Shown piece by piece: positions 424-60,820 of a DNA stretch of 64,000 bases. This DNA comes from Prolixibacteraceae bacterium. Lineage in GTDB: Bacteria > Bacteroidota > Bacteroidia > Bacteroidales > Prolixibacteraceae. The DNA is taken from contig JAIOZY010000020.1 of NCBI GenBank assembly GCA_021740385.1, positions 4,493-68,492 on the forward strand. The letters are read 5' to 3'. The notes under the pieces are model-generated. The model was given only the letters and a program-made list of their open reading frames with translations. It ran no database searches and was not told the origin of the DNA. Each line of letters starts with the position of its first letter. The first letter of the stretch is position 1. The translations under genes and the position numbers were made by a program.

Positions 424-3240
424 TTATAATTTTATTGTTTGTTCTTCGCCGTTATATGTTACAACCTTATCGGATGCTGAAGAAATGCCAAGGCCGTTTC
501 CTTTGTTTTCGTCAACCAATACGACTTTGATTGTACGTGTTTTCAGCATACCCGGAAATTCGCCTTTGCGTTTGCCAATGGTGAGGGCTTTTACAGCATC
601 ATTCCAGGTAAATTCAATGGTTGCGTACAACCCTTTTTCGTAGTTGTAGTTGTCGTTTTCGTCTTCGTACAGTACGAACTGTCCGTTGGCTCCCGGGTAT
701 ACGCGCAGTTCAAGCGGGTCGGCCGGTTTTTCTGTGGCGTATTGCACAAATGGCCCCACAGGTACTATCGATCCGGCCTTAACCAAAACGGGCATCATGT
801 CTTTCGGTGTATCAAACATGATGGTTTGCCCGGCATCGAATTTTTTACCGGTCCAGAAATCGTACCACCCTTCGCACTCGGGCAGGTACACATCGCGGGT
901 CATTTCCACTTCAGCCTTTTCTTCTTCGGTTGCAAACATTTCGGGGGTTTTCCAGAAAAGTTTCATGCGGGCCGCACCGGTCTGGTTGTTTTCGGTTTCA
1001 ACAACAACATCGTATTCCTTGCCGGCTTCAAGGTTGATAAAATCGGTGTATTGTTCGGTACTGGTATACACAATGGGCAGGGTTTCGCCATCAATCTTAA
1101 TGCGCTTGCTGTCGAAACATTTAAAGTGGAACTGGTGCTTGCCGGATTGTAGCGGTATCAGTTTGCCTTCCCAGCGGATTGAATACATCGAGTCGGTCAC
1201 ATAATCGGGACGCCCGCCGTACCAGTTAATGTTAATGTTGGCATCGATCTGTTCTTTGCTCAGGTTTTTGTATGCTTTGTCTTTATAGTAACGGGCCAGC
1301 AGTCCGGGTTTACCGTCGTTGGTTTTGAAGCAGGCAGCCGGTACCAGCTCACTGGCCAACGGGGGTTGGTGGTACATAAATTCTGTTACAGGGCAGGCCA
1401 TAAGCGAGGGGCCAAACATAAACTGGTCGTCAATGTTATAGGTTTTCTTGTCGGCCGTGAAATCCATGGGTAACCCGCGCATGATGGTGTAATCTTCGCT
1501 GGTAACTTTCCAGGCCAGTGAATAAATGTAAGGCAACAGGCGGTAGCGCAGGTTGTCGAACTTGATGAGCGACTCGGTAAACTCGCCCATTTCCCATATT
1601 TCGCGTGGTGTTTCCGATCCGTGCGACCGGAATATCGGGGTAAAAGCACCCAGCTGGAACATGCGGCAGTAAAGTTCCTGGTAAGCAGGATCCTTGCCGC
1701 CTTCCATAAACACGCCGTCGTAGGCGCCCAGCACAAAAGCGCCAATGTCGAAAGTCCAGTACGGAATGCCCGACATGCTGTGGTTTAGCCCGGCCGAAAT
1801 CTGGTTACGGTAAACTTCCCAGTTGGCGCCAATATCGCCGCTCCAGGTTGTGGCGGCATTACGTTGTTGGCCGGCATAGCACGAACGGGTAAGGATGTAA
1901 GCCCTGCGGTCGGAGGTTTCTTCCCGCCAGAATTTGTGCAGGTGGTCGGTCATAACCAATGAAAAGGCGTTGAGGTAACGGGCGCACGAACCCAGGTGGT
2001 TACTGCCCATTTTTTTCATTTCGTATTCGGTAGCCTCTTTGGTGAGGGCATTGATCACGTCGGGCTCGGTCGAGTCGATCCACCAGCCGTCGAGCCCTTT
2101 CGAGTAAATCCCGTCGCGCAGGTATTTCCAGTACAGTTTGTTAGCCTCGGGAATAAACGCATCGTAATATTTAAATCCAGCCCAGCCAATGGGTTCGTAC
2201 AAAAAGCCGTGTTTTTCCATGTCGGCATAAATTTTTGTATTGGGTCCAAGCGCCGGCCATATCGATATGATGGCATGGTAATTCATGTCGTGCAGCTCGT
2301 CCATCATCTTTTTAGGTTCGGGAAACAGGGTTTTATCGAAAAACATGCCGCTCCAGTTTTCCGGGCCGTTCCAGTAGTCCCAGTCCTGTATCATGTTATC
2401 GATTGGGATTTTGAGCTTCCGGTATTTGCGTGCAACGCTCATGATCTCTTCCTGGGTGTCGTAGTGTTCTTTGCTTTGCCAGTATCCAAAGGCATACTTG
2501 CCGTACATCGGGGCAGTACCGGTAAGGTACCGGTACCCCGATATCACGTTGTCCATATTTGAGCCGCTTACAAAATAGTAGTCGATGTTGTCGCCCATGT
2601 CGGACCAGAGTGAGGCTCCGGTCAAATCGTCATGGAAAATTGTTTTTGAATAGTTGTCCCACAAAATGCCATAGTTTTGAGTTGAAACCAGGAAGGGGTT
2701 CACTGCATCGGTGTTCGATTGCACGAGCACAACTTCTTTATCGCGGTAGTTGAAATAACCGTACTGGTGCTGACCCAGGCCGTAAATTCCTTCGTCGGGC
2801 ATGAGTTCAAAATCCTGCTGAACCGTAAAGCCTGAATCACCGTCGTAAACCACCGGCTGGAACATAGCCTTGCCAATTTCTTTTAAAATGGTTGATTCTT
2901 CCGGGTCGAGGTAATCAATGTTCCCGGTTTTTTTATTGATTTTTACGGTTAGCGTTTCCGATTTCATTACAACTTCTTCAGGTCTTTCTTCAACGGAAAT
3001 ATCGAGTACCGGAATGGAATTCTGTATTACTGATAGTGATTTTTTTTCGTCAGTCCCGTTTGGTGTCCATTTCAGTACCCTTACAATGTCATCGGTGTAA
3101 AACTGGGCTTTCACGTATAGGTTGTCAAATTCGAGAACCACCCCGTTTTGAACCGGGTTTACACTGGCTGGTTTTTTCATGCAACCGTTAACTGTTGCCA
3201 ATAGCAGCAAAGCAGCTAATCCTTTTTGAAAATGTTTCAT
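424..3240 (-). CDS. GH31 family glycoside hydrolase (alpha-glucosidase/alpha-xylosidase type) with a PA14 domain after the catalytic barrel; lipoprotein-type signal peptide
   Basis: GH31 motifs: WQSKEHY..IPIDNMIQDWDYW, GWWIDSTEPD, TWSGDI..SGIPYWTFDIGAF. PA14-like stretch: YYKDKAYKNL...SIRWEGKL..GKHQFHF. Start moved to MKHFQKGLAALLLLATVNGC (3240), because the upstream 19 codons of the ORF run through a palindromic repeat. Confidence 0.85.
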   Translation of the reverse strand: MKHFQKGLAALLLLATVNGCMKKPASVNPVQNGVVLEFDNLYVKAQFYTDDIVRVLKWTPNGTDEKKSLSVIQNSIPVLDISVEERPEEVVMKSETLTVKINKKTGNIDYLDPEESTILKEIGKAMFQPVVYDGDSGFTVQQDFELMPDEGIYGLGQHQYGYFNYRDKEVVLVQSNTDAVNPFLVSTQNYGILWDNYSKTIFHDDLTGASLWSDMGDNIDYYFVSGSNMDNVISGYRYLTGTAPMYGKYAFGYWQSKEHYDTQEEIMSVARKYRKLKIPIDNMIQDWDYWNGPENWSGMFFDKTLFPEPKKMMDELHDMNYHAIISIWPALGPNTKIYADMEKHGFLYEPIGWAGFKYYDAFIPEANKLYWKYLRDGIYSKGLDGWWIDSTEPDVINALTKEATEYEMKKMGSNHLGSCARYLNAFSLVMTDHLHKFWREETSDRRAYILTRSCYAGQQRNAATTWSGDIGANWEVYRNQISAGLNHSMSGIPYWTFDIGAFVLGAYDGVFMEGGKDPAYQELYCRMFQLGAFTPIFRSHGSETPREIWEMGEFTESLIKFDNLRYRLLPYIYSLAWKVTSEDYTIMRGLPMDFTADKKTYNIDDQFMFGPSLMACPVTEFMYHQPPLASELVPAACFKTNDGKPGLLARYYKDKAYKNLSKEQIDANININWYGGRPDYVTDSMYSIRWEGKLIPLQSGKHQFHFKCFDSKRIKIDGETLPIVYTSTEQYTDFINLEAGKEYDVVVETENNQTGAARMKLFWKTPEMFATEEEKAEVEMTRDVYLPECEGWYDFWTGKKFDAGQTIMFDTPKDMMPVLVKAGSIVPVGPFVQYATEKPADPLELRVYPGANGQFVLYEDENDNYNYEKGLYATIEFTWNDAVKALTIGKRKGEFPGMLKTRTIKVVLVDENKGNGLGISSASDKVVTYNGEEQTIKL

Positions 3241-3266
3241 TCGTCTAAATTTAAAGATTTCAAAGG

Positions 3267-3290
3267 TGATCCCGATGTACATCGGGATCA
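3267..3290. repeat. 24-nt perfect palindrome TGATCCCGATGTACATCGGGATCA (class B palindrome)
   Basis: Self-complementary over 24 nt. A 21-nt identical copy lies at 58661-58681, and variants at 43909-43926 and 43850-43868. Confidence 0.9.
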
Positions 3291-3338
3291 TTCTCATATG
3301 TGATTGGCATAATCATGCTCGTTTCATGGTAATATTTT

Positions 3339-31973: not shown

Positions 31974-33563
31974 TTATTGCCCGTAACCCGGGTTTTGTTG
32001 TAACTGGCCGTCCGAAGCTTCGATTGCTGTTTGAGGAATTGGCATGAGCAATGCTGTTTCGGGCGATGTAAAATCCTTGTTGGTTTTAGGCAAAAGGAAT
32101 GTGCCAAACCGTATCATATCCTGGCGGCGGTGCCCTTCCCAGTAAAGTTCGCGCCCACGTTCGTCAAGGATATCAAGTAGTTCGATGCTGGCCAGTTCAG
32201 GTGCTTCCCTTTTTCTTCTGAGTTGGTTAACCAGGTTCAGTGCACCGTTCATATCGCCCTTACGGGCCAGGCATTCGGCTTTCATAAGCAGCGCATCGGC
32301 ATACCGCCAGATGATAAAATCGTTTGGTGTGCGTGCAACATTAACCGGCTGGTTGCGGGGGTGGTATTTCAGCACGCGTACCCCTTGATTTTCAGCGGCG
32401 CCGTCGAGCGGGCATTCAAAAGTAAATACCAGCGGTTCACCTCCACGGGTTTTGAGGGTATCGCCATTCGTGTCGAACTGCATGCCGTGATTAAACCCGT
32501 TCACCACGGCCATTACCGGGTAAATGGTACTGTCAGCCCAGCGTACATCGGATGTAATGTCGGTACCTTCTATCCAGCATTCGTTCAGGTATCCCTCGGG
32601 TGCCATGCATCCGTTCCAGTTCGATGGATAATCGCCCATCAGGTGCTGGCTGTAGTGGAACGTGTGAGCAATCCAAATAACCTGGTTGTCGAGGCCATAG
32701 TCGTCGGCATCGTCAAGCCCGGCAACAAAAATGGCTTCATCGTCGGGGTTACGGTAATTCAAGTGATTGTCGGGGCCAAACATGTTAAAATAGTTGTCGG
32801 CCAGTTGAAAAGTTCCCGGATCGATGATCTGGTTCAGGTAAATGAGGGATGAATCCCATGCTGCCTGTCCGGTATACACTTCCTTGTTGATGTACATTTT
32901 TGCAAGGAACATACGTACGGCTTCCTTGTTAGGCACACCGTAATCGGCTACGGCCCTGTCGGGCATATCTTCCAAAATGGATTTCAGGTCGTTAACAATA
33001 AAGTTGAAGGCCTCGGTACGCGACATGTACGAAGGGTCTTTGGTGTAGTCGAGGTCGAAGGGGTCGCGATAAGGGGCTACGCCGTACAAATCGATCAGGT
33101 AGTACATGTAGAAATTCCTGAGGAATCGAAGCATTCCGCGGTAACCTTTTACTTCCTCCGAAACCTCTTCTTCGGTTCCCAGTACCGATATTCCGAAGTT
33201 TGCGGCTGCAATACCTTCGTTCAGTTTGTTCCATGTTCCGCCAACATCGCGGTGCACCGGTGTCCACTGGTGTAGCCATTGTTCCTGCCATACGCCCCCG
33301 TCGTACCAGTCGGTTCCACGGGTGGGGAAGCACAATTCATCGGAGTTGCTTTCCTGCATGCCCCATACGTTTTCCCTGTACCAAAGTCCCCTGAGGTGCC
33401 CCAGGGCGGGAGCAATAAGGTTCGGTATCAACTCAGGGTCCTGTATCAATACGTCCGATGTTACTTTATCCTGGGGATGTTCTTCAAGATCGGTACATGA
33501 AGTGAACATCAGGCTGCCGGTTAGAAGGGCAGCTATTACCGTATATTTAATTAGATTTTTCAT
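31974..33563 (-). CDS. SusD/RagB-family nutrient-binding outer-membrane lipoprotein
   Basis: Lipobox LMFTSC. C-terminal ..RGRELYWEGHRRQDMIRFG.. is typical of SusD homologues. Lies directly downstream of a SusC-like gene. ATG at 33563. Confidence 0.9.
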   Translation of the reverse strand: MKNLIKYTVIAALLTGSLMFTSCTDLEEHPQDKVTSDVLIQDPELIPNLIAPALGHLRGLWYRENVWGMQESNSDELCFPTRGTDWYDGGVWQEQWLHQWTPVHRDVGGTWNKLNEGIAAANFGISVLGTEEEVSEEVKGYRGMLRFLRNFYMYYLIDLYGVAPYRDPFDLDYTKDPSYMSRTEAFNFIVNDLKSILEDMPDRAVADYGVPNKEAVRMFLAKMYINKEVYTGQAAWDSSLIYLNQIIDPGTFQLADNYFNMFGPDNHLNYRNPDDEAIFVAGLDDADDYGLDNQVIWIAHTFHYSQHLMGDYPSNWNGCMAPEGYLNECWIEGTDITSDVRWADSTIYPVMAVVNGFNHGMQFDTNGDTLKTRGGEPLVFTFECPLDGAAENQGVRVLKYHPRNQPVNVARTPNDFIIWRYADALLMKAECLARKGDMNGALNLVNQLRRKREAPELASIELLDILDERGRELYWEGHRRQDMIRFGTFLLPKTNKDFTSPETALLMPIPQTAIEASDGQLQQNPGYGQ

Positions 33564-33590
33564 ACTATTATAATTGTTTGTTTTCAAAGG

Positions 33591-33606
33591 TCCGCCAGCT
33601 GGCGGA
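33591..33606. repeat. 16-nt perfect palindrome TCCGCCAGCTGGCGGA (class A palindrome)
   Basis: Self-complementary. Related copies at 43817-43832, 52004-52015 and 27003-27020 (variant). Confidence 0.9.
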
Positions 33607-33687
33607 TGGAACTCGCATGCATTTTAATCATACTCTTGGGTGTAATTTTTTCATATGCTCGTTTCATACTACTCATTCTTTTTCAAA

Positions 33688-43692: not shown

Positions 43693-43802
43693 TTTTCTGT
43701 TTAATGATTTTTTATCGAAGGAATAAATGACAAGAACATTCATTTTTCTCCGCTGTAATTTTTTTAATAATTTAACCTGAACTATTCATAAATTATAAAA
43801 AC

Positions 43803-43953
43803 ATGAATAAAGTTCATTCGCCAGCTGGCGAACCGACTTAGATAGCTTGTCCCGAACTTGATTCGGGAAAGTTTAACTTTTTAAAAAAGTTTTACTGAAT
43901 CTTAGTCGTCCCGATATCCATCGGGAGAGATAGGGATTATTCGTGAATAATCC
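43803..43953. repeat. Cluster of five consecutive short hairpins, including class A and class B palindromes
   Basis: ATGAAtaaagTTCAT (43803-43817); TTCGCCAGCTGGCGAA (43817-43832); TCCCGAActtgaTTCGGGA (43850-43868); TCCCGATatccATCGGGA (43909-43926); GGATTATTcgtgAATAATCC (43934-43953). Confidence 0.85.
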
Positions 43954-51967: not shown

Positions 51968-52020
51968 ATGAAACGATCCCACCCTGGCGGGAGAAATTCC
52001 ATACGCCAGCTGGCGGACCA
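51968..52020 (+). repeat. Intercistronic module: ATGAAACGA, imperfect hairpin, then class A palindrome CGCCAGCTGGCG followed by GACC
   Basis: ATGAAACGA at 51968-51976; CCCACCCTGGCGGG hairpin; CGCCAGCTGGCG at 52004-52015. The next gene's ATG lies 26 nt after GGCGGA. Confidence 0.8.
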
Positions 52021-52043
52021 ATTGAAATTAAAAATTTAATCGT

Positions 52044-54392
52044 ATGAAACGCTTTACATTCGTTCTGTTCGCGATTCTGGTTTCATTATTTAGCCCGGCC
52101 CAAACCACCCTTTCACAAAATGATGAAACCGGAACAGTTCGCCTTGAGAGCACGGGTGTAGCAATAACCTTTATGGCTTATGCGCCAAACATTATTTGTA
52201 TAACGCATAATGATGATAACCAGATTGTTTCAACCTCTGCAATTGCCCTTGAGCCTGATGGTTCTGGTTTTAAAATTGAAGAAAATAACCGGCACTGGGT
52301 TTTAAAAACCGATTCCCTTTTTCTGATAATTGATAAGAAAAACCTCCACATCGATTTTAAAAACTACCGAAAGCATTCGATTGCTTTACACGAGGGGTTT
52401 TTCAGCGATTCGGTTAATTCAGGGTTTCGTTTTAGTCTTGCTGCAGGCGAAAAAATATTTGGCGGAGGCGAAGGTGCCATTCCGCTTAACCGCAGGGGGT
52501 ACAGGTTAAACCTGAACAATGAGCCTCACTGGGGGTATGGCTGGGGCGAAGAAAACCTGAACTTCTCGGTACCCCATTTTATCTCATCTTCAAATTATTC
52601 GGTTTTCTTTAACAACGGGGCAATCGGTTATGCCGACATTGGCAAATCGAAAAACTCATTGCTTGAAGTTGCTTCAGTAGGTGGGCAAAACCAATATTTC
52701 TTTCTGTACAATACAACACTACAAGATTTACAAAAATCGTTTGCCCGGCTTACAGGCACCCAGCCCATGCCACCACGTTGGGCACTGGGTAACCTGATGA
52801 GCCGTTTTGGTTACCAAACCGAAAAGGAAGCCCGTGAAAAACTCGACAGCATGTTGGATGCCGGATACCCTGTCGATGCCATTATACTCGACCTTTACTG
52901 GTTTGGCCTTGGCCCCGATGGTTGGATGATGGGTGACCTTGACTGGTACAAGCCCAACTGGCCAACACCCGGTAAAATGATCAACGATTTTAAGCAGAAA
53001 GGCGTGAATACCATTCTTATTACAGAGCCCTATGTGCTCGAAACTTCAAAAAATTTTGCTGAAGCTGACAGCCTGGGCTATTTTGCCACCGATTCGACAG
53101 GAAAAACCAACATTGTTGAAGATTTCTTCTTTGGCCGGGCAGGTCTGATTGATCTGTTTAACCCCGATGCCTGCAACTGGTACTGGCAGTTTTATCAAAA
53201 GCAGGTTGAACTGGGCGTTGCCGGATGGTGGGGTGACTTGGGCGAACCTGAAAAATTTCACGACGATTTGACATTTAGCGGATCGATGGGGCCATCGGTA
53301 CGAAACCTTTATGGCCATTACTGGAGCAAAATGCTGTATGACAAGTACAGTAAGTTGTATCCTGACAAACGGCTTTTCCATCTTAACCGTGCTGGTTTTG
53401 CCGGATCTCAGCGATTCGGATCTTATCCATGGTCGGGCGATGTATCGCGCACCTGGGGAGGCTTTATGGCCCAGTTGCCCAACATGCTTTCAATGAGTTT
53501 GTCGAACATTCCATACGCCCATTCCGACCTGGGCGGATTTTGCGCCGAACCCATGAATGAAGAACTGTACCTGCGTTGGCTTCAGTTTGGGGCATTCAAT
53601 CCCGTTTTCAGGCCACACAGCGAAATCGTGCCGTCGGAACCCATCTATTACAGCGACTCAATTCAGCAATTGGTAAAACCATTTTTTGAATTACGGTACA
53701 GGCTTTTACCCTATAATTACACACTGGCCTGGCGGCAGGAACAATTTGGTGAACCACTGGCCTCGCCACTTTTTGTAAAAACGGCGCTGCCAAAAATGAT
53801 GTGGGGCATGTGGGACGAATATTTCTGGGGCGATGCGTTTTTGGTTGCACCCGTCCTCGAGGCCGGACAAAAAGAAAAACAGGTGTTTTTACCACATGGA
53901 ATATGGTTTGACTTTTTTACAGAAAAGCGGTTCCTCGGAAACAGTTTTTTACAGGTTGAAATCACACCCGACCACATACCTGTTTATGTTAAAGCCGGAA
54001 GTTTTATTCCCATGATAGCACCAATACCAAATACATCGGCCTATGACCCTACGCAGATTGAAATCCATTACTATTACGATAAAACTATAAATGGGGCAAA
54101 CTATGCCATGTATGACGACGACGGAGAAACACGCGATGCCTACGGGAAAAATAAATTTGAGCTGATAAATTTTTCTTTTTATGAATCGGAGGGAAAGCTG
54201 ATTTTTACGATTACAAACAATGGAAACGATTACCCCGGCAGGCCTGAAAAACGTGAAATTGAACTGGTGGTACACAACTATCCCGAAAATGTGTTTTCGG
54301 AAGAAATTGAGAAAGTAAACACCACAGGAAGCGTAAAGCTGGAACTGAAGAAAGATGGGTCGGTTAAATTTGAAATCATTAAAATAAAATAA
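52044..54392 (+). CDS. GH31 alpha-glucosidase/alpha-transglucosylase-type enzyme
   Basis: Signal peptide, then DAIILDLYWFG, GWWGDLGEPE and PWSGDV..IPYAHSDLGGF. Confidence 0.85.
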   Translation: MKRFTFVLFAILVSLFSPAQTTLSQNDETGTVRLESTGVAITFMAYAPNIICITHNDDNQIVSTSAIALEPDGSGFKIEENNRHWVLKTDSLFLIIDKKNLHIDFKNYRKHSIALHEGFFSDSVNSGFRFSLAAGEKIFGGGEGAIPLNRRGYRLNLNNEPHWGYGWGEENLNFSVPHFISSSNYSVFFNNGAIGYADIGKSKNSLLEVASVGGQNQYFFLYNTTLQDLQKSFARLTGTQPMPPRWALGNLMSRFGYQTEKEAREKLDSMLDAGYPVDAIILDLYWFGLGPDGWMMGDLDWYKPNWPTPGKMINDFKQKGVNTILITEPYVLETSKNFAEADSLGYFATDSTGKTNIVEDFFFGRAGLIDLFNPDACNWYWQFYQKQVELGVAGWWGDLGEPEKFHDDLTFSGSMGPSVRNLYGHYWSKMLYDKYSKLYPDKRLFHLNRAGFAGSQRFGSYPWSGDVSRTWGGFMAQLPNMLSMSLSNIPYAHSDLGGFCAEPMNEELYLRWLQFGAFNPVFRPHSEIVPSEPIYYSDSIQQLVKPFFELRYRLLPYNYTLAWRQEQFGEPLASPLFVKTALPKMMWGMWDEYFWGDAFLVAPVLEAGQKEKQVFLPHGIWFDFFTEKRFLGNSFLQVEITPDHIPVYVKAGSFIPMIAPIPNTSAYDPTQIEIHYYYDKTINGANYAMYDDDGETRDAYGKNKFELINFSFYESEGKLIFTITNNGNDYPGRPEKREIELVVHNYPENVFSEEIEKVNTTGSVKLELKKDGSVKFEIIKIK

Positions 54393-60632: not shown

Positions 60633-60692
60633 GCAGAATAAAAATAATAGTACCCTTTTGAAAACAACGAATTGACAATAAATACAACGACC

Positions 60693-60820
60693 GCACAACA
60701 AGGCATCAAACCCAATAGCCGCGGGTGTTTCATAGGATACTGATGTGGATAATTGAAAATTTTGTACTTTTATGAAAAGACAGTGGAAGCGGCTACTGGG
60801 TTTATGCCCGAACGTTATAA
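60693..60820 (+). other. attC-like site 2
   Basis: GCACAAC-aa-GGCATCAAACCCAATAGCCGC (60702-60722) pairs with GCGGCTACTGGGTTTATGCC (60789-60808), 19 of 21 positions, then cgaac-GTTATAA (60814-60820). Confidence 0.5.

Follow-up and report, generated by a model that had tools for sequence, protein, structure and literature searches.

What fills the spacer between the susC and susD genes in a 64,000-nucleotide (nt) stretch of the genome of a Prolixibacteraceae bacterium, and why does a similar arrangement recur in two further spacers between glycan genes? The stretch, hereafter the window, corresponds to C32:4493-68492 of a 4.89-Mb genome in 113 contigs (41.9% GC), and the genes flanking the spacers are by Pfam SusC-like, SusD-like, three GH31 and one GH13. 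An initial annotation of the window had described one succession of motifs in the three spacers and taken it for a reused RNA element of glycan operons. The motifs are indeed there: ATGAAACGA follows the stop codon of the preceding gene at 20, 11 and 6 nt, one and the same 13-mer, ATGAAACGAGCAT, is found at 33655-33667 and 3315-3327, perfect palindromes follow (CCGCCAGCTGGCGG; TGATCCCGATGTACATCGGGATCA at 3267-3290; CGCCAGCTGGCGG at 52004-52016), each is succeeded by CCTTTGAAA or CCAATTGAAA, and the ATG is found 26-27 nt beyond the palindrome. Our analysis however leads to a different account of them. We consider the spacers, with a probability of roughly 0.7, to belong to a family of structured, non-coding repeats of the insertion type, which occurs widely in Bacteroidia and whose members end with the start codon of the downstream gene.

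That the element is reused beyond chance is borne out by the genome-wide counts, which far exceed the expectation from composition (ATGAAACGAGCAT, 26 against 0.2; CGCCAGCTGGCG, 39 against 0.07; CCCGATGTACATCGGG, 19 against about 0). It extends beyond the three spacers and beyond glycan operons: three rounds of nhmmer seeded with nine canonical copies retrieve 82 copies from this genome, and a covariance model retrieves at least 53, as well as five in the window. Similarity among the copies starts exactly at a first ATG and stops at a last ATGAA, the unit, of roughly 70-130 nt, opening with ATGAAACGAG and closing with ATGAA(A). A long form of about 95-160 nt and a short form of about 67-80 nt share one plan, which reads ATGAAACGA(G/T), a variable hairpin domain, (G)CGAG or AGAAG, the anti-start strand TT(C/A)CAT, five variable bases or a palindrome, an A-rich loop of ~22 nt that resembles a Bacteroidia initiation region, the reverse complement of the five bases, and ATGAA(A). 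The interval of 26-27 nt that had been read as a functional spacing is thus explained otherwise, as the start codon is the final part of the repeat itself and the distance from palindrome to start is constant because it is internal to the repeat. The sixth base is free solely on the gene side, where starts such as ATGAAT and ATGAAC occur, and therefore the duplicated or targeted unit is ATGAA. The window has no match in Rfam at gathering thresholds, and the elements of 19 loci from several orders have none even at E ≤ 1 (two weak matches lie elsewhere); a ribozyme or other known RNA motif was rejected on this ground. Full-text searching of the literature found no description of a start-codon-abutting repeat in Bacteroidetes, and this family of ~100-nt structured repeats across the class Bacteroidia is apparently undescribed.

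The unit contains two helices. P1 (AAAC-GA-stem ... stem'-GA-GTT) closes the variable hairpin domain, pairing AAAC..G-C-A-U(-G) with (C-)A-U-G-C..GUU across tandem G.A/A.G, and P3 pairs CAU plus 5 nt with 5 nt plus AUG, a geometry by which the new AUG therefore pairs with the anti-start strand. Both covary. In an alignment of 22 copies from this genome 86.6% of the cells are paired, 10 of 16 pairs are changed on both sides and 0 of 500 shuffles are as good, while slid controls are only 15-38% paired. The corresponding values for 41 copies from 22 other genomes of several families and orders, an alignment that was fitted to the model and is thus biased towards structure, are 92.6%, 11 of 16 and 0 of 500. 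Among the changes, C7-G56 is replaced by a U-A pair in other orders (ATGAAATGAGC...GCGAATTCCAT), Watson-Crick pairs take the place of the tandem G.A in two families (CACC/GGTG and CATC/GATG), and the P3 arms vary as ACGAT/ATCGT, ACTAT/ATAGT, CTTAT/ATAAG, GTGTT/AACAC, CTAAT/ATTAG and others, some with tandem G.A. The G.A tandems are asymmetric (29 against 6 C.T), as is no other mismatch class. The predicted fold of canonical copies consists of P1 and P3 (z-scores -3.8 and -3.1). In plain copies the AUG is predicted to be paired with a median of 0.82, as compared to 0.55 in the other genes that start with ATGAAA (p = 3e-4); the median for copies with a palindrome, 0.54, is indistinguishable from that of the control genes. 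Read from the sequence, TTCCAT is complementary to the element's own 5' AUGAA as well, so that one strand fits both ends.

The three spacers first described (copies 1-3; Table 1) are atypical members of the family, and their start codons are predicted to be open. Copy 1 extends on the minus strand from a 5' ATGAAACGAGCAT to the susD start ATGAAA at 33558-33563, and this start codon is predicted to be unpaired because the palindrome stands where the 5' arm of P3 would be. Copy 2 retains the 5' end, the palindrome, the A-rich loop and ATGAAA (3235-3240) and is without a canonical anti-start strand; it is a deletion derivative of the form found at C27:5282 and C89:37590. Copy 3 shows in order ATGAAACGA, the hairpin TCCCACCCTGGCGGGA (51977-51992), TTCCAT (51997-52002), the palindrome, the A-rich loop, ATCGT, and ATGAAA at 52044-52049, which is the GH31 start. 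With CCGCCAGCTGGCGG or CCCGATGTACATCGGG in the 5' arm of P3, the start codons of the susC-susD and GH13-GH31 copies are predicted to be paired no more than those of ordinary genes. Two window copies had not been recorded in the initial annotation, one of which ends in the start codon of the gene identified by Pfam as susC and carries an intact P3 (CATCTAAT/ATTAGATG), a perfect 8-bp start-codon hairpin. Since susC starts at the end of this short-form copy, susC and susD both have element-derived leaders. The degenerate fifth copy has lost its 5' ATG (ATACAACGACC), retains an anti-start strand TTTCAT at 60728-60733 and terminates in ATGAAA.

Table 1. Positions of the repeat copies and their parts in the window, and of intact Y1 transposase genes in the genome (contig given).
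Feature	Position	Strand	Score or remark
Copy 1, susC-to-susD spacer, long form with palindrome module	33558..33667	-	57.9 bits, E 2e-8
Copy 1, anti-start strand TTCCAT	33606..33611	-	complementary to ATG-AA, middle C unpaired
Copy 1, palindrome module CCGCCAGCTGGCGG	33592..33605	-	takes the position of the 5-nt 5' arm of P3
Short-form copy ending in the susC start codon	36697..36770	-	55.8 bits, E 5e-8; ATG 36702-36700
Copy 2, GH31-to-GH31 spacer	3235..3327	-	34.5 bits
Copy 3, GH13-to-GH31 spacer, short form	51968..52049	+	26.7 bits
Fifth copy, degenerate	60682..60777	+	28.5 bits, E 0.0055; weak
Intact Y1 (IS200/RAYT-like) transposase gene	C59:48968-49306		
Intact Y1 (IS200/RAYT-like) transposase gene	C53:12119-12463		
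Intact Y1 (IS200/RAYT-like) transposase gene	C51:165809-166153		
Intact Y1 (IS200/RAYT-like) transposase gene	C90:38564-38905		

But is the repeat inserted, or has it always belonged to the genes that it precedes? In four relatives (54-77% SusD identity) the susC-susD spacer consists of 13-25 nt followed by a single ATGAAA; the exact SusD protein of the window has no database record. Likewise, the element in front of ackA is missing in G002, a genome of the same genus, and in 11 more of the aligned genomes, those with the ackA start in view; the aligned stretches of G012 and G004 did not reach this start and both are outside the count. Species of the window's own genus are too diverged to give empty and filled sites at the nucleotide level, and such pairs were obtained from a series of lpxD loci in 29 species of one genus in another order, 11 of which are filled, 4 decayed and 14 empty. 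Here the sites correspond exactly: empty ones read ...gtcgcaATGAAATTTACA or ...tatatttttgtcgcaATGAAATTTACAGCA with one copy of ATGAA(A), filled ones ...gtcgcgATGAAA(about 96 nt)ATGAAATTTACA, in detail ...tatatttttgtcgcgATGAAA(CGAACC... about 96 nt ...AATAAGATGAAA)TTTACAGCA. The states are scattered in an interleaved fashion over the lpxD tree; branches with good support require at least 5 changes, and some sister pairs comprise one filled and one empty species. In some species pairs the interior of the element is 90% identical at 32% identity of the lpxD 4-fold sites, and therefore recurrent gain or transfer is indicated. The distribution as a whole is patchy and dynamic. Between G000 and G002, both of the window's genus, copies at different loci are 94% identical, whereas susC/susD DNA matches over one short stretch alone (77%), and in a second genus the identity is 92-95% between copies from species without alignable flanks. 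Where copies of different subfamilies stand in tandem, they have a common junction ATGAAA (C34:20316/20238 and C63:83919/83824). Among 41 relatives the copy number ranges from 0 to 53, with 1-53 copies in 24 of them, and matches to the family reach other orders of the class.

The empty lpxD sites also show a conserved box, tatatttttg, only about 6 nt before the ATG. If this were the Bacteroidetes -7 box (TAnnTTTG), the mRNA of an empty site would be nearly leaderless and the leader at a filled site would be wholly element.

These data bear directly on the view that the repeat is a cis-regulatory leader RNA evolved by the host, such as a thermosensor or protein-binding hairpin, which was spread by duplication and kept by selection and is not mobile. 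In its favour are the covarying helices, a predicted masked AUG and the spread of the family over the whole class. Moreover, the helix and end segments at lpxD are far better conserved between sister species (84 of 90 positions identical) than the P1 interior (78 of 117; p = 2.5e-6) or the 4-fold sites (111 of 219; p = 5e-14). Against it, the repeat stands in front of functionally unrelated genes, varies widely in copy number among relatives, alternates between filled and empty at the same site across a tree, and is more alike at different loci of different species than the surrounding genes are; there are also tandem copies, decayed copies and a copy split by another repeat. We therefore regard a non-mobile leader RNA as unlikely.

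The genes that carry the repeat are equally telling with regard to the proposal of the initial annotation, by which an RNA element inside the operons, be it a hairpin for processing or stability or a partial terminator, would determine the stoichiometry of susC and susD or of the enzymes, in the manner of the malE-malF repetitive extragenic palindromic (REP) element. The terminal ATGAAA opens a long open reading frame (ORF) in about 60 of the 82 copies, and most of the others either come first in a tandem pair or are followed by short ORFs. Gene starts make up only about 797 of the 9318 ATGAAA sites in the genome. In ten host proteins scanned by Pfam the family alignments begin at residues 1-7. 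The ten comprise acetate kinase (ackA), adenylosuccinate synthetase (purA), NAD epimerase, TrkA, low-molecular-weight phosphatase, aldehyde dehydrogenase, rhamnose isomerase (rhaA), AICARFT/IMPCHase (purH), DNA polymerase III delta (holA) and a BlaI-type repressor; many lipoproteins are also among the hosts. While three of the five window copies do lie between co-directional glycan genes and the GC-rich palindromes are predicted to fold stably, hosts such as ackA, purA and holA do not fit an element dedicated to glycan operons, and one window copy stands before susC, which is the first of the two genes in the susC-susD pair. Polysaccharide utilisation locus (PUL) zones, crudely taken as susC/susD pairs plus or minus 8 kb, contain 6 of the 82 copies against 4.5-4.9% expected (p = 0.19-0.30), so that the suggested enrichment in PUL spacers is not seen. 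Neither is the repeat specific to co-transcribed genes, a co-directional upstream neighbour within 150 nt being present for 55.6% of 81 scorable copies and 54.7% of ATGAAA-start genes (Fisher p = 0.91). A GC-rich hairpin followed by a T-run, as partial terminators would demand, is absent from all three spacers, and most copies have no palindrome at all. PUL stoichiometry control is not indicated, and we give an operon-internal element of this kind very little weight. CCTTTGAAA was also considered as a promoter and rejected, as no consistent sigma-70-type or TTTG/TAnnTTTG pair is found, the latter judged by reading the sequence.

Calling the longest ORF runs about ten host genes upstream into the element, for example at 424-3297 (-) of the window, where a 957-aa ORF is obtained in place of the 938-aa GH31 protein that starts at 3240. 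Automatic annotation is likely to misplace these start codons.

Finally, a small leader peptide (MKRACK...) is hardly credible as the functional product of the unit. The 5' ATG has a good initiation context, and in 37-41 of 57 copies its frame runs past the anti-start strand without a stop (in 37 of them to an end within the P3 loop or at the ATG). On the other hand, codon 5 is a stop in window copy 2 and in entire subfamilies (ATGAAACGAGCATGA), the sequence in other orders is ATGAAATGA, frame 2 is nearly as open as frame 0 and the interior is the least conserved part of the sequence, all of which speaks against this ORF as a coding feature.

How, then, might an inserted repeat come to end on start codons? 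A clue is provided by the 25 nt upstream of the element, where the A-frequency at -11 to -13 is 0.54-0.63 as compared to 0.64-0.68 at gene starts and 0.33 at all ATGAAA sites, and where the GC content is 0.236 as compared to 0.238 and 0.39, respectively. Placed behind what is by these measures a true A-rich initiation region, the left ATGAAA has the appearance of an original start codon. We propose that insertion occurs at, or 3' of, the pentanucleotide ATGAA, so that the left ATGAA(A) would be the host gene's original start behind its original initiation region and the right copy the start now used. Because the unit ends in ATGAA and supplies its own initiation region, insertion at a start codon would leave the gene intact, and selection would then leave copies mostly on start codons. 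The TTCCAT strand might serve as a guide for recognition of ends and target in single-stranded DNA, as in IS200/IS605. In the mRNA, P3 may mask the AUG and thereby modulate translation, and in some copies a short ORF from the left ATG could couple translation into the gene. Such coupling would be limited to some copies because that ORF is not conserved.

A bolder version of this proposal, to which we hold only tentatively and which we think rather doubtful, is that the family represents a new class of mobile element, a protein-free "start-codon homing" cassette of ~100 nt. TT(C)CAT would then pair with both ends of its own element and with the target ATGAA, directing cleavage and joining by a putative host or trans-acting nuclease, and by virtue of the portable initiation region and the masking hairpin each insertion would rewire rather than destroy the translation of its host gene. 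A sizeable share of Bacteroidia 5' leaders, including those of susC and susD here, would in this case be element-derived.

Several observations weigh against an insertion-type element, or at least against parts of the proposed mechanism. Neither a mobilising enzyme nor an autonomous parent was found: in the genome itself no long version bounded by the same ends came to light, and the candidates considered, orphan 5' ends at C2:18135, C61:48121 and C58:37531, proved to be truncated pieces and not longer elements. The genome's four or five Y1 genes are flanked by repeats unrelated to the start-codon element. Across the 41 genomes Y1 and element counts do not correlate (Spearman 0.18, p = 0.25, Y1 subclasses pooled), a genome that is 98% complete (G011) carries 16 copies but no Y1 gene, and several others are rich in Y1 genes and devoid of the element. 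On these grounds a Y1 transposase is not favoured as the mobiliser. Among the species-level genomes compared there is no empty/filled pair at a near-identical nucleotide level, and the empty-site junction patterns of susD and ackA gave 0 matches in metagenome contigs. The conservation of helices and ends at lpxD could reflect host-level selection or constraint within a pool of active elements equally well, and recurrent gain is inseparable from host-level selection at this locus because in some species pairs the element postdates the gene. Judging from the junctions, target-site duplication of ATGAA and site-specific recombination on an ATGAA core would fit equally well. Mismatches in P3 comprise 4 G.T and 8 A.C, so that strand-specific folding is weakly supported, and the short upstream ORF, with 16 of 57 copies stopping early, lends itself poorly to a general role in coupling.

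As to the Y1 genes themselves, the one on C59 is bracketed by two copies of a ~110-nt structured repeat in a REPtron-like arrangement, and the one on C53 by other small palindromic repeats.

The palindromes, which had been regarded as the core of the unit, turn out to be optional inserts. Of 66 copies that could be scored, 20 have CCGCCAGCTGGCGG in place of the 5-nt 5' arm of P3, and in others it is found at the tip of P1. The palindrome cores are over-represented in the genome, but the family accounts for only 17 of 39 CGCCAGCTGGCG sites and 5 of 19 CCCGATGTACATCGGG sites; the remainder belong to a second repeat family of ~190 nt, to the tips of other hairpins and to two pseudo-copies of tRNA-Asn. 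Since most of their sites lie outside the start-codon family, the palindromes are independent, nested hairpin modules. The ~190-nt repeat is likewise dispersed and carries a central CGCCAGCTGGCG palindrome between other hairpins; it is present in the window at about 43730-43920 (palindrome 43819-43830) and also at C14:42890, C57:49864, C64:38903, C72:49298, C78:30338, C78:102789, C86:2334, C94:108403, C96:11950 and C99:31511. As one copy interrupts a start-codon element (C9:3135-3385), this family too looks like an inserted element. At C67:53190-53478 a tRNA-Asn(GTT) gene follows two pseudo-copies of its 5' two-thirds, 106 nt apart, in both of which the 5' part of the anticodon arm is exchanged for the palindrome CCCGATGTACATCGGG. 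This suggests that the palindrome lands in existing hairpins.

If the spacers are indeed copies of one inserted cassette, then many 5' leaders and intercistronic spacers of Bacteroidia would have to be seen as such copies and not as gene-specific regulators, the ~80 copies in this genome covering starch-type PUL genes (susC, susD, GH31) as well as housekeeping genes. For annotation this would mean start codons mis-called into the element, spurious short upstream ORFs, and "conserved leader motifs" misread as regulons. The family would at the same time offer a natural experiment on initiation in a phylum without Shine-Dalgarno pairing, as the same loop and hairpin precede unrelated genes. Should a nuclease be tied to it, insertion at an ATGAA that is rebuilt in the process, together with a strand that matches both ends, would amount to an unusual, harm-avoiding and possibly guide-directed form of targeting.

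How does the repeat compare with known systems? In function, P3 would be analogous to the hairpins of RNA thermometers and of translational coupling, as it pairs the AUG with an upstream strand over an A-rich loop. It differs from both in that the hairpin belongs to a dispersed repeat before unrelated genes, with no signal dependence known. With REP sequences, bacterial interspersed mosaic elements (BIMEs) and REPINs the family shares short, dispersed, extragenic hairpins, a mosaic and modular make-up and long persistence in lineages. The analogy to REP elements drawn in the initial annotation is thus apt as far as a dispersed REP-type repeat is concerned, but it does not extend to the features that define systems with REP-associated tyrosine transposases (RAYTs): in place of a GTAG or CGTC tag the element shows ATGAAACGAG and GAGTTCCAT, copies were not found flanking the Y1 genes of this genome, and whereas REP sequences lie in 3' or convergent spacers the element occupies start codons in sense orientation. 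A TnpA_REP subclass particular to Bacteroidetes, whose genes are flanked by structured repeats of an atypical kind, is reported in PMC6006769; these correspond to other repeats of this genome and not to the start-codon element.

The Correia miniature inverted-repeat transposable elements (MITEs) of Neisseria resemble the family in being about 100 nt long, gene-less, present in many copies and variable in presence among relatives; that Correia-type elements can alter the expression of neighbouring genes may be counted as a further likeness. Unlike MITEs, the element has no terminal inverted repeats, its 5' ATGAAACGAGC and 3' ...NNNNNATGAAA being direct and not inverted, no parent insertion sequence was found, and the flanking direct repeat is of fixed sequence. 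The ATGAA(A) that flanks every copy fits target-site duplication and targeted insertion next to ATGAA equally.

Closer in structure are the palindrome-associated transposable elements (PATEs) derived from IS200/IS605, with which the family shares subterminal hairpins at both ends, the lack of terminal inverted repeats and a fixed pentanucleotide at both borders, ATGAA adjoining the left end and closing the right. In IS608 internal guide sequences base-pair with the ends of the element, and the internal strand described here can pair with both ends in what may be an analogous manner. Different from IS200/IS605, which has one guide per end, a single guide-like strand is common to both ends, linkage to and co-variation with Y1 genes are not seen, and the target coincides with start codons, a replacement initiation region being carried along. 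Small repeats that are built to spare genes are also known elsewhere: Rickettsia palindromic elements insert in frame, and mycobacterial interspersed repetitive units (MIRUs) contain small ORFs that overlap the flanking stop and start codons. The present family resembles both in this respect and differs from them in that it lands on the start codon, rebuilds the codon together with its initiation region, and contains two covarying helices.

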